Part shown: one piece after another, positions 10,189-28,554 of the stretch
How the letters are laid out: each line of letters opens with the position of its first letter
Position numbering within the stretch: position 1 is the stretch's first letter
NCBI GenBank assembly: GCA_050013255.1
Contig: JBEKFP010000001.1
Location: 384,001-448,000 of the forward strand
Direction of reading: 5' to 3'
Origin: Candidatus Bathyarchaeia archaeon
GTDB taxonomy: Archaea; Thermoproteota; Bathyarchaeia; 40CM-2-53-6
DNA length: 64,000 nucleotides
The notes under the pieces: generated by a model
The model's input: the letters and a program-made list of their open reading frames with translations, nothing else
Told to the model about the DNA's origin: nothing
Database searches by the model: none
Position numbers and translations under genes: made by a program

Positions 10189-10392
10189 GAACCTACGAAT
10201 CATAATTGAAAGTGTGACACCCCTAGACACATAGCCACATGGAAGCGAGTCTAAATTATAGACGACTCATCAAAGCCTGCACATTCAGCCGACGAAGCTT
10301 CACCGACTCTTCAGGTGCAGGGTCATTTTCACTCAGCACTCGGTAAACGTTCGTAACCTCACAATCGAATAGGCTCCCGCTACCCTCTACCC

Positions 10393-10995
10393 TTGAAACC
10401 TGGAGGTGGGCGGAGAGCGTTGAAGGGTTCTTTCGGCGGTAAGGTCGAGAACGAAAATTCCGGTAATGTACGTAGTTTTTCGGTTCAGCTTCCAGCTAAC
10501 GTAACTGACTGGGTGGGGAAGGCTGCGGTTAGGAAGGAGAAAACGCCCGAGCAGTTTCTGCGGGAACTGATAATCACAAGCATAGAGGAAGAAGCCATGC
10601 CCCTAACGCTCCGGCTTCAGCGGCTCGACGAACTCGTCAAGAAAATGCAGGTAACAGTGAAGAAGACGCCCATGCAGGAAGAGAAGGACGCCAAGACGCA
10701 TGTCCACTCTTTAGAGGAACGAACTAAGAGACGGGAACACCTAATCGAACTAGGCCTAGAAGCCTACGACGAACTGAAGAAGATCGCAGCATCGGAGCAG
10801 GCTTCTAAAAGATCGAAGTCCCGCCTCCAAGCATTCGCCGTGATGGCCCGCATCGGCACATTCAACGCCGCCGTAATCCGCGACGCCGAAAACGACGAGT
10901 TAGGCACCCTCCTAGCCGAAGTAGAGGAGACAAATGAACAGTTCAAGGAGGAACTGGGAAAACTAGAGAAAAAGCGGCGTGAAGAGAAAGCATAG
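10393..10995 (+). CDS. RHH-domain + coiled-coil hypothetical protein (MGE-type)
   Basis: FSVQLPANVTDWV...PEQFLRELI RHH-like segment followed by long charged helices; start uncertain. Confidence 0.55.
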   Translation: MKPGGGRRALKGSFGGKVENENSGNVRSFSVQLPANVTDWVGKAAVRKEKTPEQFLRELIITSIEEEAMPLTLRLQRLDELVKKMQVTVKKTPMQEEKDAKTHVHSLEERTKRREHLIELGLEAYDELKKIAASEQASKRSKSRLQAFAVMARIGTFNAAVIRDAENDELGTLLAEVEETNEQFKEELGKLEKKRREEKA

Positions 10996-11335
10996 GAGAG
11001 GGAACGTTATCGCACAGGCACCTTCTGACATGCCCAGCGCCGAATCCCCAAGAAACCAACCGAAGCGCCTCAAACTAAAGCGCTATCGAAGCGTTCAAGT
11101 TAACTTCAGGGTTAGCAGAAAATGGCTGAACATAGTCATCATGTTAGCCAAGCTAGAAGGCCGCAGCAGCAGCGCCCTAATGCGTGAACTCCTCAACCTG
11201 GGCCTCGCACAATACGTGAACATACACTACCGCACACCCCAACTCATCAGGCAACAACAACTACAATCCATAATCAACAAACAACTACCCCAAGCCGCAT
11301 CTCAAGCCAAGGCAGCCCAGAAAAAAGACGCCTAA
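10979..11335 (+). CDS. CopG/RHH DNA-binding protein
   Basis: VQVNFRVSRKW...LAKLEGRSSSALMRELL. Confidence 0.6.
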   Translation: MKRKHRRGNVIAQAPSDMPSAESPRNQPKRLKLKRYRSVQVNFRVSRKWLNIVIMLAKLEGRSSSALMRELLNLGLAQYVNIHYRTPQLIRQQQLQSIINKQLPQAASQAKAAQKKDA

Positions 11336-11394
11336 CATTGAACTTGACGGTTCCTGTGTTCATATATATGTTCAAACATTTTTCTCGTCGGGTA

Positions 11395-11628
11395 ATGGTT
11401 TTGACAAAGACGCTAACCATACGCGATGAAACTTACGAGAAACTTGCAGCTGTCAAAGGGAAAAATGAGAGCTTTAGCGAACTGTTTGATCGGCTTGTTG
11501 ATGGGGCCGGTTCCTTGGAATCTTTGAAAAAGCTGAGGGGGAGCGTGGAGTTCGCGGAGAAGAAGAAGATGTTGAGGGAACTCGAGGCTTCTAGGCAGAG
11601 CGTAGGATATGATTCTCCTCGATACTGA
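11395..11628 (+). CDS. vapB: VapB antitoxin (COG1753 type), probable 3' frameshift extension
   Basis: TKTLTIRDETYEKLAAVKGKNESFSELFDRL. Confidence 0.8.
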   Translation: MVLTKTLTIRDETYEKLAAVKGKNESFSELFDRLVDGAGSLESLKKLRGSVEFAEKKKMLRELEASRQSVGYDSPRY

Positions 11629-11837
11629 TGTTCCAACTACCCATCCTGAATTACACTAAGGAAGACTCACGTCTCTCCGTCAAGCTTGAACTCGCTGCGG
11701 AGAAAGCGGGAACACCAGTACGCAGAACCGACGCAATGATAGCTGCCACAACCATCACCAACGAGGCGGATTTCTTCACGCTCGACTCGAAACATTTCGG
11801 GCCAATGAAGGCGTTTGGTTTGAAACTCTTTCGCTAA
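11609..11837 (+). pseudogene. vapC: VapC PIN toxin pseudogene (internal deletion + frameshift)
   Basis: ATG 11609 gives MILLDTDV then an early stop; the PIN C-half (TDAMIAAT...TLDSKHF) is in another frame; the middle of the domain is missing. Confidence 0.8.
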
Positions 11838-12396
11838 AGGATGATTACATTCAACTCTCGGGCTTTGTTCGTCATAGGCAGTTTCTTGGCAAATTCCTTC
11901 ATGTCCCGCAGACTGACAACGCCTCCTAAACTCACTGTCTGATCATTAGTGGAGAACTCTGGGCGTGCCTGTTCACCGCTCAACTTGCGAACTTTTCTTA
12001 CGAGCCATCACATCGTTCTCGTTATTGTCGTCTTCATCTTTGTCGGTCTTCTCATCTTTCTCCTTGTCCGTCATCTTCTCTTCTTTCTCACCCTCTTTCT
12101 CCATGTTTTTCTTATCATCAGCGTAATCATCGTCGTGATCATCGTAATCGTCGCCTTCGTCGCCGTCTCGGCCATCGCTTCCGTACCCGCTGCCGCTCCT
12201 GTAGCGGCGATCGTTCTTGGAGTCGCTGCAGCAGCATGTCTGGGAATCGGATCGGATATACAGTCAACTATCCAATGTCGTGAACTCGAAACATACTGAG
12301 ACTTGGATTCTCCGCGGAATGAATCGGCGTATTGTCCACTAGCACGCCTACTCGCGAAACAGCTCCGCCACATGATCTGACATGCTGTATCAAAAA

Positions 12397-12423
12397 TGTT
12401 AACTACTTAAATGCTAGTTAACA
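12397..12423. promoter_or_regulatory. Inverted repeat straddling a TATA-like box, probable autoregulatory operator
   Basis: TGTTAACTA-cttaaatgc-TAGTTAACA, perfect 9-bp arms about 30 bp upstream of the wHTH gene at 12455. Confidence 0.55.
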
Positions 12424-12454
12424 GAAATCATACACGAAAACATGGTGAGACGCA

Positions 12455-13390
12455 ATGAAACGAATTAAGCTAAGTCCGGATGAGCTGAAGTGCCTGCGCT
12501 TCATAGCAAGCCGCAGAACCTCGCGCGTCTCGGACATAGCCTCAGCCCTCAACATATCGAAAGTCCAACTGTCAAGGGTCATTTCCGGTCTCGTGGACAA
12601 AGGCTTCATCACCACAAAGAAGCAAGGCCTCTCAAAGAATGTTTCACTCTCCGAAACCAAACATGCAGCGCTCTGGAGAAGTCTGAGTTTGGAGTTCGGT
12701 CACATGCCTTTGCACAAGCTGCTATCAGGGGGAAGCCTTGAAGTGCTCTCGGCGATAGGCTCACAGCAGCTAACAAATAGGAGAACCATCGCAGAAAGCT
12801 CATTGATTTCGGAGGCAACCGCCGCACGGGTTCTCGAACGGCTGGGGCAGCTGGGCGTGGTTCAGAAGAAAGGCGCCTACCGCATTTCACCTAGGTTCCA
12901 GATTCTGGGCGAATTCACGGCCGAATTCAGGCGGTACATCAACCGAAAGGTGGCTCTCGAATTCGCCCCCGACGCCGCGATAGTCTGGGAGCGCAATGTG
13001 GAATTCATCGTAGAGAGCTCAAGATCTGAAGAATCCGATGGCTTCCTCCTGACGGGAGTCTCAGCGTTCGCGAGGTTCGGCGTATCACTGATGGCATCCA
13101 AGTCGCACTTCTTCCATTCACCCTTTGCAATGAGGCTGAGGCTGGAAGAAGTGCTTATCCATTCGCTCCTAATACCCAACTTCAGCCTGCTCCCAACACT
13201 TCTAACATGGAGAAAGAACGAGGCAAAACTGGATTCTCGATATTTGAGGGACTCCGCGGAGAAATACGATGTAGCCACGTCCGTAGCAGAGATAACTCGC
13301 TATTTCGAGAGCCACGGCGCAGAAAGACCAGACCGCTTCCCTCCGTGGAATGAGTTTCTCGCGAGAGCGAAGGAGTATGGAATTCAATGA
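12455..13390 (+). CDS. Tandem wHTH (MarR-like) regulator, AbiEi-like putative antitoxin
   Basis: VSDIASALNISKVQLSRVISGLVDKGFI plus a second HTH; ATGA overlap with the NTase gene. Confidence 0.7.
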   Translation: MKRIKLSPDELKCLRFIASRRTSRVSDIASALNISKVQLSRVISGLVDKGFITTKKQGLSKNVSLSETKHAALWRSLSLEFGHMPLHKLLSGGSLEVLSAIGSQQLTNRRTIAESSLISEATAARVLERLGQLGVVQKKGAYRISPRFQILGEFTAEFRRYINRKVALEFAPDAAIVWERNVEFIVESSRSEESDGFLLTGVSAFARFGVSLMASKSHFFHSPFAMRLRLEEVLIHSLLIPNFSLLPTLLTWRKNEAKLDSRYLRDSAEKYDVATSVAEITRYFESHGAERPDRFPPWNEFLARAKEYGIQ

Positions 13391-14211
13391 CCTCGCCGCG
13401 CATGTTTGGTGAGGCGGACCTAACTAAAGCCCTAGAGGGCAGTGGGAGACATGTCTCGCGGAAAGTAACAGCATATCTCATCGGCGGATGCGCGATGACT
13501 TTCATGGGAAGAAAGGTCGCGACAAAAGACATCGACATCGTGTTAGGATCATCCGGGGACGCGAAAGAATTCACAATAGCCTTGGGGCAGGTCGGGTTCG
13601 CCAGTGTTCGACATCTTACGAGTCCTTACACTAGGATGGGCGCGTTCGACATTGTGGAAGACAACGGGGGCATGAGGTTCGACATATTCGACCGCCAAGT
13701 CTGTAGGGCGCTGGTGCTAAGCAGCGGGATGAAGTCGAGAGCGCGCCTCTATCGAGCTTTTGGGAATCTCGAAGTGCATCTCATGGCACCCGAGGACATC
13801 TTTCTCTTCAAGGGCATTACTGAGCGCGAGGCCGACCTAGACGATATGCGTATACTTGCCGAGGTCGGATTGGAGTGGAAGACTATCGAGACGGAATGCC
13901 TATCCCAAACGCCTAGCGGACGCTGGGCCTACATGCTAGGGACAAAGTTGATGGAACTTCGCCAAAAGCACGGCATTGTTTCACCCATAATCAAGACCCT
14001 GATGGCTCATGCAAACATGGACTTACTAGTGTACGCCTTCCGCAATGTTCTTGGAAATCAGCAGATGAAGTTCAAGGAAATCGCACGCGGCATCGATGAG
14101 AAATACGGCTACAAGGACTCCTGGACGCGCAAGCAGCTCGCCTTGCTAACGACCAAGCGTCTCGTGCAGAGGAGCAAACGTGCTCGGGAATGCTTGTATT
14201 CCATGACATGA
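13387..14211 (+). CDS. DUF6036/AbiEii-like nucleotidyltransferase with C-terminal wHTH
   Basis: YLIGGCAM...ATKDIDIVL, EDIFLFKGITEREADLDD. Confidence 0.8.
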   Translation: MTSPRMFGEADLTKALEGSGRHVSRKVTAYLIGGCAMTFMGRKVATKDIDIVLGSSGDAKEFTIALGQVGFASVRHLTSPYTRMGAFDIVEDNGGMRFDIFDRQVCRALVLSSGMKSRARLYRAFGNLEVHLMAPEDIFLFKGITEREADLDDMRILAEVGLEWKTIETECLSQTPSGRWAYMLGTKLMELRQKHGIVSPIIKTLMAHANMDLLVYAFRNVLGNQQMKFKEIARGIDEKYGYKDSWTRKQLALLTTKRLVQRSKRARECLYSMT

Positions 14212-14463
14212 TGTCAGGATTGACAAAGTGGCAGGTCCTCTAGATGGAAGAGAGTAAGTGTTTAAGCTTCTGTTCAATCTCAGGGATTATTTTCCGGTCG
14301 TCTTGAATCCTTATCCTATTTCGTCGGTAGAGTTCTGTTAGGTTTCTCTCGACCCAGTTCACTATTCCCCATTCTGTTAGAATCAATCGTACCTGTCGGA
14401 TGTCGAGTCTTCGATGATTCTCCTTGATGAAGCCGTTTAGGCGCAAGGCGTTCTCGGTTGATG

Positions 14464-15816
14464 TCAGAAGTATCGAGTGATTGGCTTGAAGTTCGGTCGA
14501 GTCTGCTGTTGTGTTGATGCGTAGATGGCCAGTGCGAGGCTCCACAATTGATCGTCATGCGTGCCGGCTGGGTGGCTGAACTTTTGCGTCCCGGACTTTG
14601 TGGTTTCGCATTGTTGCTCGGTCATCTGGATTAGGAGTTTTGGGTTGTCTCTTGGGAGGGTGAGTTTGCCGTGTTCCAGGGCGAGTTTCAGTTTGCCCAT
14701 GATGTCTTCCTTCATTTGGGCGGTTAGGGTGACGCCTTCTATTCCTTGCATGAATTGTTTGATCTCTTCGTAGGGTCCTTCACCTACTCCCGTTTTGTCG
14801 AGGCATCCCGCCGCGAAGGCGTACGTCTCGTTCAGCCGCCTCACAGTGCCTATTACCGCGGTGTAGGGGGTCTCCAGCGGCAGTTCCTTGAGGTAGACGA
14901 GGCGAAGGTTGTCGTCAACCTTCTCTAGGATGGCGATTGCTGAATGGTCGGCGTGTTTCCCGAAATCTATCCCCACTACGAATTGGCCCTTGTACTTTTC
15001 GGCTTGGAGTGGATCCCTGTTCAGCGCATATTCGTCGTCCGTGCAGCTCAACACCAACTCGCTGGGCAGGAAGCTGAATTTGTCGTCCATGAATACGGCG
15101 TTGTATTCACGGTTAAAAGCAAAGTCACCGATGGTTCTCCTCTCCAGTTCCAACTTTTCTTTGGTAACCGTAGGGTTCATGGCACTCGGCCAAGTGTAGG
15201 TTTTGAATCCCAATTCAGGCTTGCTAAGGGCTTCATAGAATGGGTGGTCCCTCATCCACGGCGTGGAAGTCATTATCAGCCTGGCTCCTGGCCGCGTAAT
15301 CATCGTCGGCCTAACCACCGAGTCAATGACAATTCTCGGAATGAAATTCGCCTCGTCCAGAATGGCCATATCCGCCGTCTGCCCCCGTAGGGTCGACCCT
15401 TCCCTTCCACATGGCAACGCGACGATCTCTGAGCCATTTGTGAAACGGATGATAGTTCTCGATTGGTAGGTCATCAGGGCCTTGGCGGGGATGGAGGTTT
15501 CGGTTAGGCGGAGGATTTTGTTGAAGAGTATTATGCTCTGGCGTAGGCCTGCGCTGACGATTAGGATTCGCACTTGGTTCTTTGCGAGGGCGAAGTGTAG
15601 GGCTATAATCGCGGCTAGGGTTGTTTTTCCTACCTGTCGGCCGCAGCAGGCGGCAATAAGCGTGGAATTGTCCCGTAGGAATTTCTCCTGGTATGGGTAG
15701 GGTTGGAAGTGTAGGAATGTTCTCGCGAATTCGACTGGGTCGCGTAGGGCCTTGTGGTAGAGTTGCGCGTATCGTTTGAGGCGTTCACTGTCCTCCATGC
15801 TTCTGGGCCTCCTCAA
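14464..15816 (-). CDS. Terminase large subunit (ATPase + RNase H-like nuclease)
   Basis: CGRQVGKTT (Walker A), ILDEA (Walker B), TSTP, FNREYNAVF, GIDFG, HDDQLWSLALA; intact 450 aa. Confidence 0.9.
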   Translation of the reverse strand: MRRPRSMEDSERLKRYAQLYHKALRDPVEFARTFLHFQPYPYQEKFLRDNSTLIAACCGRQVGKTTLAAIIALHFALAKNQVRILIVSAGLRQSIILFNKILRLTETSIPAKALMTYQSRTIIRFTNGSEIVALPCGREGSTLRGQTADMAILDEANFIPRIVIDSVVRPTMITRPGARLIMTSTPWMRDHPFYEALSKPELGFKTYTWPSAMNPTVTKEKLELERRTIGDFAFNREYNAVFMDDKFSFLPSELVLSCTDDEYALNRDPLQAEKYKGQFVVGIDFGKHADHSAIAILEKVDDNLRLVYLKELPLETPYTAVIGTVRRLNETYAFAAGCLDKTGVGEGPYEEIKQFMQGIEGVTLTAQMKEDIMGKLKLALEHGKLTLPRDNPKLLIQMTEQQCETTKSGTQKFSHPAGTHDDQLWSLALAIYASTQQQTRPNFKPITRYF

Positions 15817-16234
15817 GGGCTTGCCTGATTTGCTCCATGATGTCGGATTGGGTTTGCTTGCCTAATCTGTCGCGGCGGCTGAGCGCTAGTTCTCGGGTTG
15901 CGTTCTCGATGATCTTCATCAGTTTCAGTTTGCTGTCGGCCACGACCGAGTACGTGTCAACGGTCGACTGCTTCGAGTCGAGGAATACTTCCAGGTTTTT
16001 CGCTTGTATTGCGGTTCGCGCAATCTGGTCGATGAGTATGTCATCTATGGCTGGTTCGTATCCTCCCGCCTTCTCCAGCACTTTCACTAACTTGTACCTA
16101 GTTCGTTCATACTCGGGGACGTCTTTCTTTGTGAGCAACTCCTGCTTCACTACTTTCGCCGGTGGGCCTCCAACGTGCTTTATTTTCATGGGGCCGCGGC
16201 CTCCTGTGTCTTCGGCTCGTGGTTGTCTCTCCAT
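15785..16234 (-). CDS. Putative terminase small subunit (P27-like)
   Basis: Directly upstream of and overlapping TerL; helical; DDILIDQIAR...RELALSRRDR resembles the P27 TerS ELGLTPxxR end. Start may be 16190 (MKIKH). Confidence 0.55.
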   Translation of the reverse strand: MERQPRAEDTGGRGPMKIKHVGGPPAKVVKQELLTKKDVPEYERTRYKLVKVLEKAGGYEPAIDDILIDQIARTAIQAKNLEVFLDSKQSTVDTYSVVADSKLKLMKIIENATRELALSRRDRLGKQTQSDIMEQIRQALEEAQKHGGQ

Positions 16235-16608
16235 GGGGCGTTTGCCAAGTATTGGAATAGGAAGTACCTCAGGAGACGTGTCCGTGTTAGGTTGTATTCG
16301 TGGGCGAGTTGCTTGAGGTCGACGGCAGTCCGGCGTGGGATCCAGACACCGATTTTCTTATGTCTCCTTTCCTGGCTAAGTTTCAGTTTGGGGGCTGAGA
16401 GGTTAGTCGTCACTGCTTCGGTGATCACTAAACCTCTTGAGCATGCTCCGCTCTCCCGCGCGGCTCGCTCTAACTCGTCTGCTTCCGAATCTGTTAGAAA
16501 TAGGAATAATCTGACGCGTCGTGTGGGCTTGCTCTGGTAGCTTTTCCTTGTCTTTCTGTTTTCCATGCGTGGTTCATATCGGCCGAAACCATGACGTTTC
16601 GGTGACAT
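16186..16608 (-). CDS. Tandem RHH DNA-binding protein
   Basis: Two repeats: RLFLFLTDSEADELERAARE and KIGVWIPRRTAVDLKQLAHEYNLTRTRLLR. Confidence 0.6.
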   Translation of the reverse strand: MSPKRHGFGRYEPRMENRKTRKSYQSKPTRRVRLFLFLTDSEADELERAARESGACSRGLVITEAVTTNLSAPKLKLSQERRHKKIGVWIPRRTAVDLKQLAHEYNLTRTRLLRYFLFQYLANAPWRDNHEPKTQEAAAP

Positions 16609-17014
16609 AGCCGAGACGCTGAGCCATCCGTATTAATCAGCTCGTCAACGCTCATCCAGCACGCCGCGAAAACAGCTTGTCTCCCGGACAAAGCTGCGAC
16701 ACACACCCGACGGCCCTTGCTCTAACGCAAAACAGCACTCAAAACCCGTACTGAACCGGAAAATCGAACCATTGACAACTCGAGGGTCCCAATGCTACCG
16801 AAGCTAAGTTTCCTGGCCACGTTGGACTTGAATTGAGTAGGCGTTATTCGTATTCTCTCCTTCTGTGGAAGAGATCGGTTATGCACACTACGTTGCCTTC
16901 GACCGCGTATATCGCCCGATAGTCGCCAATCCTTAGACGAAGGAGGCACCAGTTTCGCGGCACCATTGATTGCCGGAAGATTAGCTGGGATCGTAATGTC
17001 GAGCCTGTTTAACA

Positions 17015-17038
17015 TGAGTTGCATAAATATGCAACTCA
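17015..17038. promoter_or_regulatory. Perfect palindrome upstream of the CocE-dpp operon (operator candidate)
   Basis: TGAGTTGCATA-AA-TATGCAACTCA. Confidence 0.6.
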
Positions 17039-17072
17039 CAGATTACCGTGACTCTAAGAATGCAAGTAGATC

Positions 17073-18761
17073 TTGGTGGCGTTCTTTTTGAAATTAGATT
17101 ATGACAATAAAACCTACGAGTCGCGCGAAGTGGCGACTGAATTCAATTTGGCTACAAAGATGCGTGACGGAGTCAGACTTTCAACGGATGTGTACCATCC
17201 GCGGGAGAGAGGAAAATGGCCCACCATATTGGTTCGTACACCATATGACAATAATGATACGAGGTGGGTGGAATTTGGAAAGAAATTCGCAGCGCGGGGC
17301 TACGCTGTAGCAACTCAGGATGTTCGAGGTAGGTATGACTCTGAAGGAGAATGGTACCCGTCCAAGAATGAGGGAAGAGACGGATATGATACGCTGAAGT
17401 GGCTTAGTCATCAGAAATGGTGTAATGGAAAAGTCGGGATGACCGGAGGTTCCTACAACGCGATGGTGCAATGGGACGTTGCCGTGTTGAGACCGCCGAA
17501 CCTCAAAGCAATGGTTTCAATGGTATGCCCATCAGACCTCTTCGTTAATTGCTGGTACAGGGAGGGCACGTTGGGCTGGGGGGACACGCTCAGGTGGCTT
17601 GTCCACGTCGACGCCAGGGTAAACCAGAACCTGCTTGCTTACAATATGAGAGACGTGTACTGGCACGTTCCGTTCAAGACCGCTGACGAAGCATTAGGTA
17701 GGCATGTACAATTCTGGCGCGACTGGATACGGCACCAGTCTTACGATTCATACTGGAAAGCGACAAGCTACCACCACCGTTACCATTTGGTAGGTGTCCC
17801 AGTTCTGCACATCTCAGGTTGGTACGATGACTGTGCGGACGGAAACATCCGCAACTACCTATCAATGAAGAAAAGGGGCCGAACGGTGGAAGCTCGAAAT
17901 AACCAATATCTCGTCATGGGCCCATGGGCACACCGCATTAATGATTCGAGAAAATACGGTGAAATCGATTTCGGCCCATCCTCATTGGTCGACCTAGACG
18001 GGTTGCAGAAGCGCTGGTTTGACTACTGGCTGAAAGGAATACAGAATGGAATCACAAAGGAAAAGCACGCCTCAATTTTCGTAATGGGGCGCAACCAATG
18101 GCGCGAGGAGCAAGATTGGCCACCACGCAGCGCGAAAGTCAGGAAATTCTATTTTCACAGCAAAGGACATGCGAACAGCTTTCTGGGAGACGGCTGCCTC
18201 ACCACTAAAGCTCCCAACCGAGAGCCCGCAGACTCTTTCGATTACGATCCGGATAATCCGTGTCCGAGCCCAGTTAACGTGAACGAACCCGACGATCGAC
18301 GCCCTGCTGAACGCCGCGACGACGTATTAGTCTATGATTCGGAAATACTCATCGAGCCCGTTGAAGTGACTGGGAACGTGTTTGTGGAATTGTTCGCTAC
18401 CTCCTCGGCACCTGACACTGATTTTGCGGCACACCTCGTCGACGTATACGACAACGGATATGCACACCCTATCGCGGACGGAATCATAACCGCACGTTAC
18501 AACAAATCGATTGAAACCCCTGAGAACATAGTTCCCGGAAAAACCTACCGGTACCGAATCGATTTGTGGCACACGAGCAACGTATTCCTGAAAGGGCACC
18601 GAATGCGCGTCGAAGTCTCAAGTTCGGATTTCCCGCGGTATGCGAGGAACATGAACACAGGGAGGCCCTACGGAGCTGACTTGACAGGAAAGGTGGCTCA
18701 CCAAGAAGTTCTCCACAGCGCTAATTACGGGAGTAATGTGCAGCTACCGATTATAGACTAA
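17073..18761 (+). CDS. CocE/NonD family hydrolase (peptidase S15)
   Basis: RTPY, QDVRGRYDSEG, GGSYNA (Ser), GWYDD (Asp), GPWAH (His), C-terminal beta-sandwich. Confidence 0.92.
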   Translation: MVAFFLKLDYDNKTYESREVATEFNLATKMRDGVRLSTDVYHPRERGKWPTILVRTPYDNNDTRWVEFGKKFAARGYAVATQDVRGRYDSEGEWYPSKNEGRDGYDTLKWLSHQKWCNGKVGMTGGSYNAMVQWDVAVLRPPNLKAMVSMVCPSDLFVNCWYREGTLGWGDTLRWLVHVDARVNQNLLAYNMRDVYWHVPFKTADEALGRHVQFWRDWIRHQSYDSYWKATSYHHRYHLVGVPVLHISGWYDDCADGNIRNYLSMKKRGRTVEARNNQYLVMGPWAHRINDSRKYGEIDFGPSSLVDLDGLQKRWFDYWLKGIQNGITKEKHASIFVMGRNQWREEQDWPPRSAKVRKFYFHSKGHANSFLGDGCLTTKAPNREPADSFDYDPDNPCPSPVNVNEPDDRRPAERRDDVLVYDSEILIEPVEVTGNVFVELFATSSAPDTDFAAHLVDVYDNGYAHPIADGIITARYNKSIETPENIVPGKTYRYRIDLWHTSNVFLKGHRMRVEVSSSDFPRYARNMNTGRPYGADLTGKVAHQEVLHSANYGSNVQLPIID

Positions 18762-18813
18762 ATAGAAAAGCTATTAAATGCAACGGGGCCGTTACGGCTT
18801 TTTTGAGTTGTCA

Positions 18814-20631
18814 ATGAAACTTTCTAAGTTCCTAACTGTTTTCGTGATAGCGCTGTGTCTTCTTCAAGCGTCACAGCTCGCTTTCGCGCAACAACCTAAA
18901 GTGCTCGTTGTCGGAATAACCAGCGAACCGGAAATAACAGAGCTCAATCCTGTGAGGATGACTACCACCTACTACACAGCAGAAGCGTACCCCAATCTGG
19001 TTGGCTGGGACAGCGACGGAAAAGTCGTACCTGACCTGGCTCAGAGTTGGACGATATCACCGGACGGATTGACCTACACGTTCGTATTGAGAGACGGTTT
19101 GAAGTGGAGCGACGGCCAACCAATCACATCGGACGATGTTGCATTCACATTCAAGTATCTCAGTGAACAGTCTGAGTTTTGGTATTACCAATGGACCCCC
19201 ATCCAAGTTCCTGCAAGCGGAACGACCACAGGATACACGCTTAGACCCGGTGCAATCGAAACGCCGGACAGCAAAACCGTCATTTTCCACCTTTTGGTGC
19301 CGTCGGCGACATTCTTCATCTATGCTGCAGGGTGGAGTGTACTACCGAAACACTACTATCAGGGAATGGACTTAACGACTCAAAACCCTGACCTTTCAAC
19401 TTACGTCGCGTCAGGACCCTTCATACCTAACCAAGACCTGCCGGGCGACAAGATCATCTACGTTGCGAATCCGAATTACTACGGCGGGGCACCTCATCTA
19501 GATCAAGTGATCTTCAAAGTCTACAGAGACTCGACTGCGGCGGAAATAGGACTTGAAAGCGGCGAAGCCAGCTTCCTCATAAACGTTCCAGGATCTGACG
19601 TTGCTGCCCTTAGCAAGGATCCGGACATTCAGATTGGAACTGAACAAGACCAGATCAATGTCTACCTAACCTTCAACTTTCATCCCAAGCTTGCCGACGG
19701 ATCCGTGAACCCCGTTGCAGACCTCAGGGTTCGAAAGGCCATTGCCATGGCAATCGACATGCCCACCATACTGAACGCGTCCCTTGCAGGCTACTACAAA
19801 GAAGCAAACCAGATTCAAGTACCCAACATGTACTATCTCGGCAAGAGTGTAACCAACACCTCCATACCAAACCCCGAATACCCCTACGATCCTCAAGGAG
19901 CGATGACTCTTCTAGACCAAGCCGGTTACCACGCTGACTCTAGCGGAAACAGGATGACAATGACACTAGTCATGGCTTCAGGTGGCCGAACTGGCACCGC
20001 CGCGTCAATCAAGTTGATGCAGCTAATTCAAAGCAGCCTCAAAGCGGTCGGCATCACGATGGCGCTGATCATTCTTGATTCGGCAAGCGCAACTCAGCGA
20101 ATAAGAAGAGCAGCACCGCCCAAAGATTGGAACATGGCACTTTGGGGAATCTCATCATCCCCAGACCCCGACGTTAACGCATACTACATGGTGAGTACCC
20201 TTGGCGGCAACGGTGATGCAGGGGGCTGGAACGTTGGCGGATATTACAACCCGCTCGTAGATCAGCTGGCTATCCTTGGAGAGAATACGACAGATCTGGA
20301 CCAACGGGTTGCCATATACCAGCGAATGAGCGGAATCGCACACGATGAACTAGCGGTTCTGGAACTGTACTACCAGACCGAAGTTCTGGCGTGGAACAAA
20401 ATGTTCCAAGGCTTCATCCTAGGCCTCGGAAACCCCATGCACGACTACTGGGGCGCCCTGAAGCATCAATCTCTTGCACAAGTCACCATAGTCCAAGAAA
20501 CGACAACAATGGAAACAACCACTGCATCTACGACAACCGACTACACGAGCATTGGGGCCATTGTAGCCGTGATTGCAGTAGTCGTAGGACTATTAGCCTA
20601 CTTTGTTGGCCGCAGGTCAAAGAAGACCTGA
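18814..20631 (+). CDS. dppA: Peptide ABC transporter substrate-binding protein (family 5), C-terminally anchored
   Basis: Signal peptide, PDLAQSWTISPDGLTYTFVLRDGLKWSDG, Thr-rich linker + TM + basic tail; ORF opens at 18778. Confidence 0.9.
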   Translation: MKLSKFLTVFVIALCLLQASQLAFAQQPKVLVVGITSEPEITELNPVRMTTTYYTAEAYPNLVGWDSDGKVVPDLAQSWTISPDGLTYTFVLRDGLKWSDGQPITSDDVAFTFKYLSEQSEFWYYQWTPIQVPASGTTTGYTLRPGAIETPDSKTVIFHLLVPSATFFIYAAGWSVLPKHYYQGMDLTTQNPDLSTYVASGPFIPNQDLPGDKIIYVANPNYYGGAPHLDQVIFKVYRDSTAAEIGLESGEASFLINVPGSDVAALSKDPDIQIGTEQDQINVYLTFNFHPKLADGSVNPVADLRVRKAIAMAIDMPTILNASLAGYYKEANQIQVPNMYYLGKSVTNTSIPNPEYPYDPQGAMTLLDQAGYHADSSGNRMTMTLVMASGGRTGTAASIKLMQLIQSSLKAVGITMALIILDSASATQRIRRAAPPKDWNMALWGISSSPDPDVNAYYMVSTLGGNGDAGGWNVGGYYNPLVDQLAILGENTTDLDQRVAIYQRMSGIAHDELAVLELYYQTEVLAWNKMFQGFILGLGNPMHDYWGALKHQSLAQVTIVQETTTMETTTASTTTDYTSIGAIVAVIAVVVGLLAYFVGRRSKKT

Positions 20632-20682
20632 GGCCTCCCCTCTCTCTTTTCAAGCGTAATTAGGTGCGAAGACTAGGTCGAA

Positions 20683-21645
20683 TTGGGATTCGCCACATAC
20701 ATCGCAAAGCGGCTAGTCGTCGCCGTACTCCTAATTTTCGTTGCGGCAACGCTCAACTTCGCTATCGTGCACTTAGCGCCTGGCGGACCGGATGCCGTTC
20801 TTCTTAACAATCCGCGCATGAGTCCAGAAGCCAGAGCATCGATTCTGAAATCGTTCGGACTGGACAAGCCGCTCTATGAACAGTACGCCCTCTACGTTAT
20901 TGGCCTGATTACAGGAAATTGGGGAACGTCGTACTTTTTTCTGACGCCATCATACATGGTAATCGCTCAACGAATCCCTGCCACGCTCGCCCTCATGATT
21001 CCCAGCCTAACCCTTACGATAGTTATTGGCATAGGAATTGGGGTACTTGCATCACGAAAACCATTTTCATTCGCCGACAGATTTCTCTCGTCCTTTTCAT
21101 TTTTCTTCTACGCCATGCCCGCATTTTGGTTGGGATTTGTTCTCTTAACATTCTTCTCTTTATTCTTGGGCGTTCTACCTGCTTCAGGAATGGCTTCGGT
21201 CACGTCCACGAAATTCCAACTTGCCGATTACTTACACCATTTGATACTTCCGATGACCACGTTAACACTCGTTAACCTAGCAAATTTCTCACTCCTAATG
21301 CGGTCGAGTCTCATAGAAGTGTTGGAACAGAATTACATTACAACAGCACGCGGCAAAGGCTTGACCGAGCACCTCATCTTCTATAGACACGCCCTCCGAA
21401 ACGCTCTGCTCCCCACCGTGACCATGGTCGGTCTCTTCGTCGGTTTCATCCTAACCGGCGCCATACTAACCGAAACCGTATTCTCATGGCCTGGACTCGG
21501 GCTGCTGACGTTCGATTCGATATTTCGGCGAGATTACCCGATCATCCTTGGGCTATTCTTCATGTTTTCCGTTATGATCATTTTCTCGAACCTAATCACG
21601 GACATAATCTATGGCCTGTTGGACCCGCGAATCACCTATGGATGA
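20683..21645 (+). CDS. dppB: Peptide ABC permease
   Basis: YITTARGKGL EAA loop, TETVFSWPGLG, RRDYP. Confidence 0.92.
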   Translation: MGFATYIAKRLVVAVLLIFVAATLNFAIVHLAPGGPDAVLLNNPRMSPEARASILKSFGLDKPLYEQYALYVIGLITGNWGTSYFFLTPSYMVIAQRIPATLALMIPSLTLTIVIGIGIGVLASRKPFSFADRFLSSFSFFFYAMPAFWLGFVLLTFFSLFLGVLPASGMASVTSTKFQLADYLHHLILPMTTLTLVNLANFSLLMRSSLIEVLEQNYITTARGKGLTEHLIFYRHALRNALLPTVTMVGLFVGFILTGAILTETVFSWPGLGLLTFDSIFRRDYPIILGLFFMFSVMIIFSNLITDIIYGLLDPRITYG

Positions 21646-22546
21646 AAGAAAGGAAACCAAACAGACCGTCTTCTCGCGCGCGGCCAAGTTCCTCAAATTG
21701 TACTCACGCGATAGATCGGCGATCTTCGGCCTAATTTTTTTGGCGACTTTGATCTTGGCTGCGTCATTCGCGTTTGTCCTGTACCCTGTCGATCCAGAGA
21801 AGCCAGAGCTTGCCTCCACGCTGTTTCCGCCCAGCGTCGTACATCCGCTCGGCACGGATTACATTGGAAGAGATCAGCTTATGCTCATCATCTATGGCGC
21901 AAGGCCTTCACTGATAATCGCGTTCGCGGCAGGAGCCATCTTGTCCTTGTTGGGTACGTTGACAGGCCTAGCCGCCGGCTATTTCGGGGGAAAAGTTGAC
22001 GGCGCAATAATGAGAACCGCGGACATATTCCTAACAATACCAACTCTGCCCCTCGTTCTGCTTGTCGTCGCGGTTCTTGGACCCAACCTCATCAACGTCA
22101 TGTTGGTCATCGGCTTAACGGGTTGGCCAGTAATGACTAGAATCGTTCGTTCGGATACGCTCTCACTCATGAAACGAGATTTTATCGAAATCGAGAGAGT
22201 CATGGGTGCTGGAATTCGACGAATTCTTTTCAAGCATCTTCTGCCCAACCAACTCAACTCCATCCTTGTTTACACGTCCCTTAGCATCCCCGTAGTAATC
22301 CTCACGGAGGCTGGCTTGGAATTCCTGGGCCTTGCCCCCATTTCGGTCAGTTGGGGGTTTATGCTCAATACATCCATAAGTTACTGGATTATCGGCGCTT
22401 GGTGGCTTTCCTTTTTCCCAGGCCTAGCAATTTTCTCGACGGCACTGGCATTCTACTTTGTTAGTGAAGGACTCAAAGCCGCTCTCAATCCCAAACAGAG
22501 GCGGAGACAAGAATCGCTGGTTGTTCAACTTGCAGAAAGGAAATGA
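21638..22546 (+). CDS. dppC: Peptide ABC permease
   Basis: HPLGTDYIGRD, GARPSL, EAGLEFLG. Confidence 0.92.
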   Translation: MDERKETKQTVFSRAAKFLKLYSRDRSAIFGLIFLATLILAASFAFVLYPVDPEKPELASTLFPPSVVHPLGTDYIGRDQLMLIIYGARPSLIIAFAAGAILSLLGTLTGLAAGYFGGKVDGAIMRTADIFLTIPTLPLVLLVVAVLGPNLINVMLVIGLTGWPVMTRIVRSDTLSLMKRDFIEIERVMGAGIRRILFKHLLPNQLNSILVYTSLSIPVVILTEAGLEFLGLAPISVSWGFMLNTSISYWIIGAWWLSFFPGLAIFSTALAFYFVSEGLKAALNPKQRRRQESLVVQLAERK

Positions 22547-23525
22547 CATAGTACTCTCAGTCGGAAACCTTACCGTGAACTTCTACCTCGAATCCGGTAT
22601 CGTCAGCGCAGTAAATCATGTTTCCTTTGACGTCCGCAAAGGATCAAGCTTCGGAATAGTCGGCGAATCAGGATCCGGTAAGACCGTTACCGCGCTCACG
22701 ATAATGGGCCTCCTCCCCATCCCTCCTGGGAAAGTTGACTCTGGGACGGTCCTGTTTAACGGCGATGAAATTCTTTCGAAAACGCCTAACGAAATGCGGA
22801 AGATTCGGGGCAACAGAATTACTATGATCTACCAAGACCCTATGACCTCTCTAAATCCGGTTTTGCGAGTTGGCTTCCAAATTGCCGAATCACTCATGGT
22901 CCATAAGGGCTTGAGCTATTCTGAGGCGATGTCGAAGGCGGTCGAGCTAATGTCTTCGACGGGTATCCCGGACTCTGAGAAGCGCGCACAAGACTATCCT
23001 CATCAGTTTAGCGGTGGCATGCGGCAGAGAATCATGATAGCGATGGCACTTGCGACCAAACCAGATGTGCTGATTGCCGATGAACCAACAACGGCGCTTG
23101 ACGTGATCACTCAGGCCCAGATACTTGCACTCCTAAAGCGCCTACAATCCGAGTACGGCATGACAGTCATCCTCATAACGCATGATCTGGGGATAGTTGC
23201 GGAACTTTGCGATGATGTTCTGGTCATGTATGCGGGGCATGCAATGGAGCGCGCCAGCTCGAAGGAGTTATACTCAGATCCCCAGAACCCATACACTAGA
23301 GGTCTGCTTGAGTCAATCACGCGCGTCGACAGAGACATAAAGCGGCTAAACTCGATTCCAGGATCAATTCCAGACCTTATCAACCCACCCAAGGGTTGTC
23401 GTTTCCACACACGTTGTCCAATGGTTTTCGAAAAATGCATGAGCGAAGTGCCGCCAGATTTCGAATTAGGGCCTAACAGGTTCTCAAAGTGTTGGCTTGC
23501 AACACCTGGGGGGAAGACGAAGTGA
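22530..23525 (+). CDS. dppD: Peptide ABC ATPase
   Basis: GESGSGKT, FSGGMRQR, ADEPTT, GCRFHTRC; start approximate. Confidence 0.92.
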   Translation: MQKGNDIVLSVGNLTVNFYLESGIVSAVNHVSFDVRKGSSFGIVGESGSGKTVTALTIMGLLPIPPGKVDSGTVLFNGDEILSKTPNEMRKIRGNRITMIYQDPMTSLNPVLRVGFQIAESLMVHKGLSYSEAMSKAVELMSSTGIPDSEKRAQDYPHQFSGGMRQRIMIAMALATKPDVLIADEPTTALDVITQAQILALLKRLQSEYGMTVILITHDLGIVAELCDDVLVMYAGHAMERASSKELYSDPQNPYTRGLLESITRVDRDIKRLNSIPGSIPDLINPPKGCRFHTRCPMVFEKCMSEVPPDFELGPNRFSKCWLATPGGKTK

Positions 23526-24505
23526 CCGAGAACCTACTCACGGTTGAGCATCTAAGCAAACATTTCCCGGCGAGACGGTCTCTTTCAGAGATGTTTCGCC
23601 CAGCCCAGAAGATGGTGAAAGCGGTTGACGATGTTACATTCACTATCGAGAAAGGCATGACCTTCGGTTTGGTTGGAGAGAGCGGGTGTGGAAAGACAAC
23701 CATAAGCAAGGTCATCCTCGGTCTCTACAAACCCACTCGCGGGAAGGTTCTCTTCCGCGGAATCAACGTGTCCGGGCGCCCTTCGAAGGAGAACACAAGG
23801 CTCTACCACCGGGAAATCCAAGCTGTCTTTCAGGACCCAGCAGGATCACTCGACCCGCGGATGACCGTCGGCCAAATAGTCAGAGAACCGCTAGACATCA
23901 ACCGCGAGGGGGACGAGCAGACAAGAGACAATGTTGCGAGAAAGATGGTCGAGGCAGTTGGTTTGACTCAGGAGCAATTTCGGAGATACCCGCATGAATT
24001 GAGCGGAGGTCAACAACAGCGTGTTGCTATTGCCAGGGCTCTTGCGATTCACCCTAAACTCGTCATATTAGACGAACCAGTGTCAGCGTTGGACATGTCT
24101 GTCCGTGCGCAGATTCTCAATCTTCTGAAGGATTTGCAATCGGAATTTGAGTTAACCTACTTATTCGTGGCACATGATCTTAGCGTGGTCAGATATCTTT
24201 GCGATATTGTCTCTGTGATGTACTTGGGGCAGATTGTTGAGGTCTGCGGAACCAGCGAGCTATTCGAGAACCCGCTTCATCCGTACACCAAAGCCTTGCT
24301 CGCTGCCGTCCCAGTGCCGGACCCTAACAATCGCCGAATTCATGAACCGCTCTCGGGTACAATCCCGAGCCCACTGGCTTTGCCGTCAGGATGTCGTTTC
24401 CACACTCGATGTCCGTCCCGGATAGAGGTGTGCTCGAGTGTCGAGCCGAAGCTAATCGAGGTCAAGCCAAACCATTACGTGTCGTGCCATCTCTATTCTT
24501 CATAA
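23522..24505 (+). CDS. dppF: Peptide ABC ATPase
   Basis: GESGCGKT, LSGGQQQR, LDEPVS, GCRFHTRC. Confidence 0.92.
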   Translation: MTENLLTVEHLSKHFPARRSLSEMFRPAQKMVKAVDDVTFTIEKGMTFGLVGESGCGKTTISKVILGLYKPTRGKVLFRGINVSGRPSKENTRLYHREIQAVFQDPAGSLDPRMTVGQIVREPLDINREGDEQTRDNVARKMVEAVGLTQEQFRRYPHELSGGQQQRVAIARALAIHPKLVILDEPVSALDMSVRAQILNLLKDLQSEFELTYLFVAHDLSVVRYLCDIVSVMYLGQIVEVCGTSELFENPLHPYTKALLAAVPVPDPNNRRIHEPLSGTIPSPLALPSGCRFHTRCPSRIEVCSSVEPKLIEVKPNHYVSCHLYSS

Positions 24506-24512
24506 CTGCTAT

Positions 24513-25496
24513 TCAGATAGAAAATCCGCGGGCAAGAGGATCAGTCTCATCGTAACGTAGAGTGTTGAAGCCGGTAATGTGAGCTGAACCAGTAATTTCT
24601 GGAACGATGGCGTCATAATTGCCCACTCGTGTCTGGCTGATAATACGCCCCTTGAATGTAGTTCCTAAGATACCTTCATGAACGAAACTTTCTCCAATTT
24701 TGAGTTTACCTTGGGAATGTAGTAGAGCTAATTTTGCACAGGTTCCTGTGCCACATGGTGATCTGTCTATCTGCCCCTGGCCGAAAACGACCACGTTTCT
24801 GGCATCTGCGTGCGGGTTTAGTGCTGGGCCTGAGAACTCTACAAATTCAACTCTGTTAATGCTCGGCAAATTCGGATGGACAATCGGTACGGAATTGTTC
24901 ACGGCTTCTCTGATGCGCAGTCCGGTTTCGATGATTTTTGATTTCTCATAAGTATTGATGTCGAGTTCTGCTTCGCTGGCCTCGACAAGTGCGAAGAAAT
25001 TGCCTCCGAATACTACGTGTACTTGAATCGTTTTTCCACAGAGGTTGATGCTGGCGGTTGTTAGGACGAAAGCCGGAACGTTCTCGAAGCTTACTGAAGC
25101 TACGTGCCCCTTGGCGTAGTGTGGATGGGTGACCACTATTCCGGCTGGGGTTTCTATATTGATCGTTGTCTTCCTTGGCACGATTTTTGTTTCCACCGCG
25201 CAGGTTACGACACCGATGATTCCGTGGCCGCACATGGTCAGATACCCGCCGTTGTCCATGAAAATGACTCCCAAATCACATCGCTTCGACTTGGGTGGGA
25301 AAAGAACAGCGCCAAACATGTCGCTGTGACCGCGTGGCTCGTTCAGAAGGAATTTACGAAACCAGTCATGGCGCGATCGCATTTCCTCTAGGGCGGCAGT
25401 CATCGTTCTGCTTTTGACCTTTGAGAAGTGGGGCATTATTCTAGTGGGTTCACCACATGTGTGGGTATCAATAACGCGGTAGATTTGAGTTGTCAA
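24513..25496 (-). CDS. Proline racemase / hydroxyproline 2-epimerase family
   Basis: HTCGEPTR, EPRGH, IFMDNGGYLTMCGHG, DRSPCGTGT (both catalytic Cys present). Confidence 0.92.
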   Translation of the reverse strand: MTTQIYRVIDTHTCGEPTRIMPHFSKVKSRTMTAALEEMRSRHDWFRKFLLNEPRGHSDMFGAVLFPPKSKRCDLGVIFMDNGGYLTMCGHGIIGVVTCAVETKIVPRKTTINIETPAGIVVTHPHYAKGHVASVSFENVPAFVLTTASINLCGKTIQVHVVFGGNFFALVEASEAELDINTYEKSKIIETGLRIREAVNNSVPIVHPNLPSINRVEFVEFSGPALNPHADARNVVVFGQGQIDRSPCGTGTCAKLALLHSQGKLKIGESFVHEGILGTTFKGRIISQTRVGNYDAIVPEITGSAHITGFNTLRYDETDPLARGFSI

Positions 25497-25558
25497 CCTG
25501 CTTATCAGCCTACTTCCTGCCCAGCGCGAGGAGGTTCCGCAGTTTCATCCTCACGCTT

Positions 25559-26620
25559 TCAACCCAGTACCTTCTTGAAAACTCGGAGGAAGTTCCCTCC
25601 GAGGATCTTTGAGATTTCCCCATCGGAATAGCCTCTTTGAGCAAGGGATACGGTGAAGTTGGGGATCTTGGTTACGTTTTCCAGATTCTCGACAAACATT
25701 TCCTCGCCTAAAGGAACCAAGTCCCCCAGGTATGTCTGATCCTCTGGGCGTGAGTAGTCAACATAGTCTGCCCCGATTCCAACGTGGTCTATTCCGACCA
25801 GTTCGATAATGTGTTCAAGGTGCTTGACCACATCATCGATGGTTGACCGAGTTGCTGTGGTAACAAAGGGCCTCAGAAACGCGAGGCCAACGATGCCCCC
25901 TTTGTCAGCGAGTGCTTGGATTTGCTTGTCGGTCACATTTCGCCAAGGAACCTTCCCGGACTCAAACGGGCAGATGGAGCTGCATCCCGTGTGTGATATC
26001 ATTGGCACTGACGTAGTTGAATCGAGTGCGTCATAGAAACTCCTCTCAGAGAGATGTGCAAGGTCCAGGAGGATGTGCAATCGGTCAACTTCCTCAACGA
26101 CGATCTTTCCAAACTTAGTTAGGCCATAGTTCTCTTTCACACCCGCTCCATGCCCTAGTTGATTCGTAACGTTGTGGGTCAATGACATTGAACGTACGCC
26201 GAGTCTGTATAGGCAGCGAAGGGCTTCGATACTGCCTTCGATTGCTTTGCCCCCTTCGAGTCCCATGAGAATCGAGAATTTGCCATTCCTATGAGCGGCT
26301 TCCATATCGGTTCCAGATTTGGCTATGACAAAGCTCCCGTTCGATTCGGCTTCTTCGGCATAGACTGCGTCGATTACTTCAAGAGTCATTCTCAATGCCC
26401 CTGCATACTCTGTGGCGAGACGAAAGCAGTCGCACTGCACGGTCATAATCGCGCCGTGCACTACCCCGGCCGAAAACCGCGGAAGGTGAATTCGGGTCAT
26501 GACATTCTTCTCGCCTCGCATTCTCCTCGGGTACACGTCCATCAGAGGGATATCCGAGTGAGCATCGATCACAAAGTTACTCGACTGGGGTTTTCTGGCA
26601 CGTTCAAAATCTGAGTTCAA
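25559..26620 (-). CDS. Membrane/renal-type dipeptidase (M19)
   Basis: IDAHSD, GLEG, LTHN, DLAH, SHT, DHVGIGADY. Confidence 0.9.
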   Translation of the reverse strand: MNSDFERARKPQSSNFVIDAHSDIPLMDVYPRRMRGEKNVMTRIHLPRFSAGVVHGAIMTVQCDCFRLATEYAGALRMTLEVIDAVYAEEAESNGSFVIAKSGTDMEAAHRNGKFSILMGLEGGKAIEGSIEALRCLYRLGVRSMSLTHNVTNQLGHGAGVKENYGLTKFGKIVVEEVDRLHILLDLAHLSERSFYDALDSTTSVPMISHTGCSSICPFESGKVPWRNVTDKQIQALADKGGIVGLAFLRPFVTTATRSTIDDVVKHLEHIIELVGIDHVGIGADYVDYSRPEDQTYLGDLVPLGEEMFVENLENVTKIPNFTVSLAQRGYSDGEISKILGGNFLRVFKKVLG

Positions 26621-26730
26621 TCATGTCCCTGCTTCTCTAGTTCAACGTTCTCTCAAAGGCAGTTCCTCGTTGCTTGTTCAGTTCTTTAAGTGTCTTTTTC
26701 CGTTTGAGCAATTTGACAGATAGAATTTGA

Positions 26731-28506: not shown

Positions 28507-28554
28507 GGTGGTCAGTCGGTCTTCAACGCGGCGACTGAAAGCGCTTTGGTAAAG

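Follow-up and report, generated by a model that had tools for sequence, protein, structure and literature searches.

A terminase gene is taken as a hallmark of a complete tailed virus. What, then, is an apparently intact terminase doing in an archaeal chromosome with no other virion gene around it? This question is raised by a locus of a Candidatus Bathyarchaeia archaeon, lying in a stretch of 64,000 nucleotides (G000:C1:384001-448000, hereafter the window, which refers to the whole stretch that was analysed; G, C and L numbers denote genomes, contigs and loci). The host genome comprises 2.46 Mb in 3 contigs and is estimated to be 100% complete, and the source names of the closest homologues place the window in Bathyarchaeia. 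On the minus strand, exactly where a first-pass annotation made from the DNA alone had seen them, three overlapping genes coding for a tandem ribbon-helix-helix (RHH) protein, a TerS-like protein and a large terminase subunit (TerL), in that order, constitute a cassette of 2,389 bp that extends from 14450 to 16838. That annotation had read the genes as an orphan packaging module of a domesticated or satellite type, or one serving a dispersed gene transfer agent (GTA), with a recent provirus remnant as the alternative. The orphan, selected and recurrent nature of the module was borne out by our analysis, while the dispersed GTA and the recent provirus remnant were not. We are highly confident that this is a real, compact and mobile terminase-only cassette maintained by selection rather than a recent remnant of a provirus.

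The TerL protein matches the Pfam models Terminase_6N (PF03237, 1.3e-12) and Terminase_6C (PF17289, 1e-8), as well as the phrog_2 profile (1e-38). A profile built from 23 homologues recovers T4 gp17 (1.8e-23) as well as G20c/P74-26-type TerL domains of thermophilic phages, both on the ATPase side (4zni, 1.8e-21) and on the nuclease side (5tge and 5m1f, ~1e-22). Throughout 23 orphan and proviral homologues the Walker A motif RQxGK (R54, Q55, G57 and K58), the Walker B residues D148 and E149, the coupling (C) motif S178-T179-P180 and the nuclease residues D278, D334, H409, D415 and D416 are invariant. The integrity of the motor and nuclease motifs had first been noticed in the window protein. 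These comparisons confirm its identification as a predicted T4-gp17-type large terminase subunit with every catalytic motif. A nuclease as such would need no motor motifs, and the retention of the whole motor by selection hence points to more than a bare nuclease.

At least 13 independent contexts, all belonging to a single monophyletic TerL clade (57-90% identity), contain the same unit of three genes, which is present twice in this genome. The contexts examined were the window, L005, L007/L042, L011/L043, L041, L173, L044, L081, L082, L084 and L169-L172; the second full copy of the genome (L005 8538-10643) lies between an Nramp/PIN region and unknown genes. As a rule, the clade loci combine an RHH gene of 115-140 aa, a helical gene of ~134 aa and a TerL of ~445 aa. 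The exceptions in layout are L084, which has no middle gene, and L044, the only locus in which the RHH and TerS-like proteins are fused into one, arguing for a functional tie between the two. No portal or major capsid protein (MCP) gene lies beside any of the 13 clade members. Instead, the cassettes are flanked either by genes for housekeeping functions (glycine cleavage, NAD kinase, peroxiredoxin and hydrogenase) or by toxin-antitoxin (TA), abortive infection (Abi) and restriction-modification (RM) modules, with at least 9 of the 13 contexts lying among PIN/MazE, ParE, AbiEii, nucleotidyltransferase (NTase)/winged helix-turn-helix (wHTH) or RM genes.

Stand-alone terminase genes under selection resemble the separated packaging loci of some GTAs, whose head and tail genes would in this case lie elsewhere in the chromosome. 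Yet no portal, MCP or tail gene was detected in the whole 2.46-Mb genome, which extends to portal and HK97 capsid genes genome-wide the earlier remark that the window holds no other virion gene. Pfam Phage_capsid and Phage_portal, phrog_9232 (portal) and phrog_5 (tail completion) have no match in it; phrog_544 (head) likewise has none here, nor in any control genome, and is hence uninformative. phmmer searches with every protein of 11 Bathyarchaeial provirus-like loci against all open reading frames (ORFs) of the genome recovered no structural gene, and purpose-built portal and MCP profiles (A6 and A7) found nothing in it. These two profiles detect portal and capsid genes ~5 kb apart in the sister genomes G281 and G260, indicating that the search is effective in this genus. 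With no structural gene found despite working profiles, the dispersed GTA is largely refuted, and we consider it extremely unlikely.

The genome also encodes a third, distant TerL (L006:9181-10654, i.e. G000:C1:243181-244654; 33-40% identity), which adjoins SufBD and is split in two, the ORFs for the ATPase and for the nuclease overlapping by 74 nt. The TerLs of the sister-genome proviruses (L181:13454-14903 and L180:5994-7725), with portal and capsid genes nearby, are also made up of two ORFs, with a 59-nt overlap in G260 and a 101-aa ORF between the halves in G281. Their portal genes are located at L181 11573-13231 and L180 8062-9630. The split looks like a conserved feature of this lineage, either a programmed frameshift or a truly two-part TerL, rather than a random break.

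The copies of the cassette do not evolve neutrally. In pairs with dS of 0.4-1.3, the dN/dS of TerL (Nei-Gojobori method on codon alignments) is 0.10-0.19, with values of 0.16 for the window versus L007, 0.17 for the two copies of this genome and 0.17 for L014 versus L011. The TerS-like gene yields 0.2-0.4 in pairs with usable dS and the RHH gene ~0.3 in the closest pair. By these rates all three genes are under purifying selection. Of 301 Bathyarchaeia genomes sampled, 118 yielded TerL relatives, many of them more than one copy. Within the reference genomes, relatives with 57% identity or more are restricted to this genus; more than 100 metagenomic clusters come in addition. In a FastTree phylogeny (LG+gamma, midpoint-rooted and read without support values) the clade of the window forms one group on a long stem with only orphan or uncharacterized members; orphan sisters (L044 and L061/L071/L077) come next and the proviral TerLs lie farther out. 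An orphan-only clade spanning 57-90% identity implies that the orphan state is old. In IMG/VR, where relatives of the window TerL were reached only by an alignment-based search, a single-protein query having matched none, the clade (at least 57% identity) is absent and the best viral TerL is ~42% identical. TerL is followed by portal and capsid genes in 48 of 76 viral contigs there, the remainder showing other arrangements of small genes and TerL, some with an ABC-type ATPase. Many contigs classified as viral (L089-L092, L096, L098, L105-L109, L119 and L120) carry only two small genes and TerL, followed by oppositely oriented, non-viral-looking genes, and may have been called viral on TerL alone.

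Taken together, these affinities indicate that the cassette was derived from Bathyarchaeial head-tailed viruses. Each copy could, accordingly, be thought of as the leftover of a decayed head-tailed provirus, with its conservation stemming from an earlier viral life. The viral origin of TerL and the TerS-like protein fits this view, as do the broken state of some copies and the L006 TerL, which looks like the remnant of a provirus of the G260/G281 type. However, dN/dS is ~0.15 between orphan copies, the genome's own two included, and 13 independent loci share the same three genes and sharp ends with no trace of portal or capsid. A relic was indeed favoured for NitKor-E1, an element of Ca. Nitrosopumilus koreensis AR1 to which we return below (Krupovic et al. 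2019, PMC6563490), yet no member of the present clade is found in IMG/VR or beside head genes, and its orphan-only state at 57-90% identity is old. The relic explanation is therefore quite improbable in our estimate, and the recent provirus remnant of the first-pass annotation is unlikely on the same grounds: far from always lying in complete proviruses, close homologues of the cassette are found in related genomes with no head genes beside them and with dN/dS values far below 1, and no clade member resides in a provirus or viral contig.

The RHH protein matches the phrog_2639 Arc-like repressor profile (3e-5), and AlphaFold2 (AF2) models it as a single chain containing two beta-alpha-alpha units (pLDDT 73). 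Its best Foldseek matches are the tandem-RHH chains of the F-plasmid relaxosome (E 9e-4, TM 0.58/0.70), followed by DndE and the archaeal-virus regulator AvtR, and homologues are found at the same position in 8 other loci. In every clade locus but L084, the TerS-like gene immediately precedes terL and is coupled to it. Its product has homologues in 72 database clusters, none of which is named, and every database homologue starts at M16. It has no Pfam or PHROG match; Foldseek against PDB and BFVD gave nothing at E<0.3, a PDB profile search was empty, and a VIA-align (wide) Z of 6.9 to the HK97 TerS (8pop_A) is within noise for helical proteins. Its AF2 model (pLDDT 82) consists of four long helices with no recognizable DNA-binding domain, and the single-protein TerS layout of a DNA-binding domain plus an oligomerization core is thus not displayed by this 134-aa protein. 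A 199-aa homologue in the provirus L057, which matches the window protein at 6e-10, lies immediately upstream of TerL, portal and MCP, and in L055 another homologue precedes the same genes with one ORF between it and TerL. Apart from the cassettes, the TerS-like family is found in genomes of family f14, 8 of 14 of which have it, and its placement upstream of TerL in the f14 proviruses supports both a viral origin and a small-subunit role. A tandem-RHH profile had no match to the genes upstream of the TerS-like gene in L055 and L057. In the viral TerL group nearest to the clade, two small proteins, F2 and F4, grouped with neither the RHH nor the TerS-like protein by BLASTP, with no profile comparison run, and their consensus sequences look unlike both. 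A predicted complex of TerL and the TerS-like protein scored 0.00, which counts neither for nor against an interaction. TerS, as the first-pass annotation named the middle gene, is thus the only label without direct family support and a weak point: the position upstream of TerL and the proviral homologues uphold it, while the predicted structures suggest that the small subunit is better described as split between a tandem-RHH DNA binder and a helical subunit, with a TraY-like tandem RHH as the putative DNA-recognition part.

The ends of the cassette are sharp. DNA similarity with 5 independent copies stops at 14448-14456, 8-16 nt beyond the TerL stop, and on the other side similarity with the closest copies stops at 16838, 230 nt upstream of the RHH ATG and short of position 17000, to which the first-pass annotation had extended a possible packaging site. 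The DNA homology that reaches 16838 is at 88% with the G281 and G311 copies and at 74% with the G260 copy. The genes themselves are tightly packed, with the RHH stop and the TerS-like ATG sharing an ATGA and the TerS-like and TerL genes overlapping by 14 nt.

At 94% core identity (measured over an 8-kb core block), G260 has an empty site. Homologues of window positions 10314-11327 and 16837-16946 are only 26 nt apart in its locus L175, so the segment 11328-16837 was either gained in the window genome or lost in G260. The right edge of this indel is exactly the 5' end of the cassette. G260's own cassette is on a different contig and only 79% identical to the window copy, while that of G311/G281 is 88% identical, as against a core identity of 82-83%, and has a different neighbourhood. 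Such differences speak for transfer or relocation and against vertical inheritance at one fixed position. The G311 copy has a RelBE pair and a wHTH/NTase pair between its TerL and the flank; the NTase-like gene, whole there (241 aa), persists in the window only as its 3' end at 96% identity, which indicates that the cassette travels with TA-type cargo that is later reshuffled. Between the window and L005 copies, identity is 78% for TerL, 43% for the TerS-like protein and 30% for the RHH protein. The DNA-recognition subunits change much more quickly than TerL, as would be expected with a diversifying recognition specificity. A recent duplication as the source of the genome's two copies was rejected, as they fall in different subclades of the tree, and so was a homing-endonuclease-like mobility, as the insertion sites differ.

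No integrase is present in the 5.5-kb segment, and among the copies integrases adjoin the cassette only in L007; neither the cassette genes nor their neighbours include a replication module (primase/Rep plus origin). Attachment (att)-like, terminal inverted and target-duplication repeats are absent from the cassette ends, and the window has no tRNA according to ARAGORN. In L081, which comes from a metagenomic genome, the cassette is preceded at ~180 nt by an intron-containing tRNA gene (L081:8939-9095; Rfam tRNA, 42 bits; not detected by ARAGORN). This gene could be the integration target there, but an upstream tRNA is no general feature of the cassettes. The 230-nt leader (16609-16838) is kept in 4 genomes, even beside an RHH gene that has diverged beyond recognition at the DNA level (the G260 copy). 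It contains no repeats, gives no structure signal as RNA, being less stable than shuffled sequence (z +1.5), and has no Rfam match, like the rest of 14000-17200. A thrice-repeated 13-mer was discarded, as it merely encodes KLKL in all three proteins. A portal-less terminase arrangement of another type, with two small genes, TerL and a ~480-aa ABC-type ATPase, is seen in L050, L049, L063 and L072 of genus g51 (G157, G175, G214 and G151). These cassettes, which carry TerLs of two lineages, adjoin one conserved host operon at the same place in 4 genomes, suggesting a site-specific insertion hotspot for this other type of element.

The features of the window copy are listed in the table. Beyond TerL come, in order, the NTase fragment, the wHTH/NTase pair, VapB with the truncated PIN toxin, unknown ORFs and a type III RM system. 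The flanks are a TA pair and a peptide operon, as first described, and the decayed toxins reported alongside them were recognized in the ParE-like remnant, which is 93% identical to G260 C2, the truncated PIN and the NTase fragment. The peptide-utilization genes form part of an 11.7-kb block (16947-28616) with two S15 peptidases, OppABCDF, a proline racemase and an M19 dipeptidase, which starts inside the ParE-like remnant and is missing at the syntenic site of the genome with 94% core identity. The block represents a metabolic island in the hotspot that also holds the cassette.

Table. Features of the terminase cassette and its surroundings (positions in the window)
Feature	Positions	Strand	Basis
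VapB antitoxin	11338-11628	+	Pfam VAPB_antitox 3e-11
Truncated PIN toxin, 69 aa	11628-11837	+	Pfam, PIN C-terminal half only
wHTH regulator (HVO_2833_C/MarR-like) and DUF6036-like NTase; AbiE/MNT-like pair convergent with TerL	12455-14211	+	Pfam
NTase-like gene, 3' fragment, last ~65 codons	14257-14452	-	96% identical to L173 12306-12501
Cassette 3' boundary	14450-14463	-	End of homology among copies
TerL, 444 aa, ATPase and RNase H-like nuclease, intact	14464-15798 (ORF open to 15816, 450 aa)	-	Homologue starts at M7
TerS-like all-helical protein, 134 aa	15785-16189 (ORF open to 16234, 149 aa)	-	Homologue starts at M16
Tandem RHH DNA-binding protein, 140 aa, first gene of the operon	16186-16608	-	phrog_2639, AF2, Foldseek
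Leader and 5' boundary; candidate promoter/operator/packaging-recognition region	16609-16838	-	DNA homology among copies
ParE/RelE-like toxin, C-terminal remnant, directly upstream of the cassette	16844-16966	-	Pfam ParE_toxin 2.6e-5, profile positions 57-89 of 89
Accessory segment, 5.5 kb: TA pair, 116-aa ORF, wHTH/NTase pair, NTase fragment, cassette	11328-16837	.	Absent from the G260 syntenic site
S15 peptidase and Opp operon, ~11.5 kb, peptide utilization, upstream of the cassette	17073-28506

As to function, the cassette is probably not a dead virus but a mobile module that borrows capsids or interferes with viruses. Our tentative preference is for capsid piracy or lateral transduction with concomitant interference, given the conservation of the whole motor, the fast evolution of the recognition parts against a conserved TerL, the position at the edge of an island and the presence of tailed viruses in the genus, whose proviruses in G281 and G260 are possible helpers. 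We infer that the three proteins form a complex, that there is a packaging (pac) site, that foreign capsids are used and that viruses are hindered in the process. The complex would be a three-piece holo-terminase, in which the tandem RHH protein would supply sequence-specific DNA binding, the helical TerS-like subunit would probably oligomerize and bridge it to TerL, and TerL would serve as the motor-nuclease. The trigger would be the infection of the cell by a tailed virus with a compatible portal, or the induction of such a virus, upon which the cassette terminase would recognize and cut a site in or beside the cassette. The cassette and the adjoining chromosomal island with its TA, Abi and RM cargo would then be pumped into the procapsids of the virus, with the outcome that the island would spread as satellites do or as in lateral transduction, while the virus would be deprived of capsids. 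With greater reserve, we raise the possibility that such cassettes are a new minimal class of hitch-hiking elements, and the first satellite-like parasites of archaeal head-tailed viruses, which, equipped with no more than a split TerS and a TerL, would turn the procapsids of whichever compatible virus infects the cell into transducing particles for themselves and the adjoining defence/TA island.

Several observations weigh against such capsid piracy. Neither pac-like repeats nor flanking direct or inverted repeats were found at the cassette. It has no integrase or replication gene that would take it to new chromosomal sites. The tailed proviruses of the genus carry another TerL lineage (33-40% identity, two ORFs), and compatibility of their portals with the cassette is thus not implied. 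Comparisons of the TerS-like protein with known TerS families and structures by Pfam, PHROG, Foldseek, VIA-align and PDB profiles gave nothing significant. The company of TA and defence islands would be just as expected of a module for defence or addiction. Finally, some copies have decayed: an in-frame TGA splits the G281 TerL, the L081 RHH gene is frameshifted, L084 is devoid of the TerS-like gene and in G309 a 158-nt relic is left. In G275 rearranged fragments are seen; its locus L016 (G275:C48:343-4113) has two inverted 3' halves of a clade TerL facing each other, 81-83% identical to the window, which represent either a rearranged dead cassette or an assembly artefact. Decay alongside selection is how an accessory or selfish module would be expected to turn over, unlike a uniformly dying relic.

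The defence or addiction role deserves separate consideration. The RHH protein would in this case repress and aim, and TerL would be an ATP-driven nuclease effector that cuts viral concatemers or host DNA upon a supply of procapsids or disturbed regulation, causing abortive infection or interference with packaging; alternatively, the three proteins could form a three-part TA system, with spread being a side effect in either case. The RHH-first operon with its ATGA overlap is in the style of type II TA operons, but its partners are the 134-aa helical protein and the 444-aa TerL, with no toxin match in PADLOC or Pfam, and PADLOC has no match for any of the three proteins. Similarly, the cassette resembles TA modules in being compact and patchy among close relatives. 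Purifying selection, the lack of integrase and replication genes and the location of at least 9 of the 13 contexts among TA/Abi/RM-type genes also speak for this role, whereas the conserved full motor and a TerS-like partner shared with real proviruses would be superfluous for a nuclease toxin. Our literature searches did not find a terminase-based defence system. We regard a defence or addiction module as rather unlikely, while noting that it overlaps mechanistically with virus interference.

How does the cassette relate to known elements? Satellites such as phage-inducible chromosomal islands (PICIs), which include those of the SaPI type with their own TerS, the cf-PICIs and the PICMIs, are chromosomal, depend on the particles of a helper with which they interfere and, in many cases, bear defence genes as cargo. 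Besides att sites, PICIs possess integrase, regulatory and replication modules, and they usually contribute only TerS or a redirecting protein, with cf-PICIs adding capsid and portal. We know of no PICI with just TerS and TerL. The cassette is like the PICIs in having packaging-specificity genes without a full virion set, and unlike them in having no integrase, att sites or replication module. The Bathyarchaeial provirus terminases (L057 in G064, L055 in G005 and IMG/VR L093-L162) belong to the same TerL family, with 30-42% identity and all motifs, and the f14 proviruses have the same TerS-like family upstream of TerL; in contrast to the cassette, their TerL precedes portal and MCP and they have no detectably related tandem-RHH gene. 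In lateral transduction, in-situ packaging by prophages or PICIs is reported to move adjacent host DNA including defence islands (Sci Adv 2026, PMC12829572). A chromosome-fixed terminase with a pac site would likewise package adjacent host DNA, defence islands included; unlike the terminases of the known cases, which sit in a full prophage or PICI, that of the cassette is free-standing and would need the capsids of another virus.

The closest published parallel in gene content is NitKor-E1, a cryptic integrated element which combines TerS and TerL with VapBC, a restriction endonuclease and a tyrosine integrase. It was called enigmatic and a probable relic by Krupovic et al. (2019, PMC6563490), who remarked that terminases had yet to be observed in non-viral elements. 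Both reside in an archaeal chromosome, have TerS/TerL as their sole Caudoviricetes-type genes, keep TA or restriction genes as company and are without capsid or portal. Unlike NitKor-E1, a single element with an integrase, the cassette has only three genes in 2.4 kb and no integrase, and is found in many genomes, twice in the present one; it also differs in its sharp conserved ends, defined only by the comparison of copies, its purifying selection and its apparently split small subunit. On the strength of these sequence comparisons, what appears new is a clade of terminase-only cassettes that is old, mobile, multi-copy and subject to purifying selection, with capsid genes in no case linked to it.

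According to Zhou et al. 2025, pSSVi and pSSVx were the sole satellites of archaeal viruses on record by then, and they are associated with spindle-shaped and not with head-tailed viruses. The cassette is thus a candidate satellite or lateral-transduction platform of archaeal head-tailed viruses, of which none had been described up to February 2025 (Zhou et al.). Calls of proviruses in archaeal genomes that are based on TerL need rereading, and many of the IMG/VR contigs considered here as viral may be such cassettes. The cassette also offers a testable route for the movement of defence and TA islands in an abundant uncultured lineage of sediment and peat. If true, the proposed hitch-hiking on viral procapsids would explain both the spread of the cassette and the mobility of islands in Bathyarchaeia.

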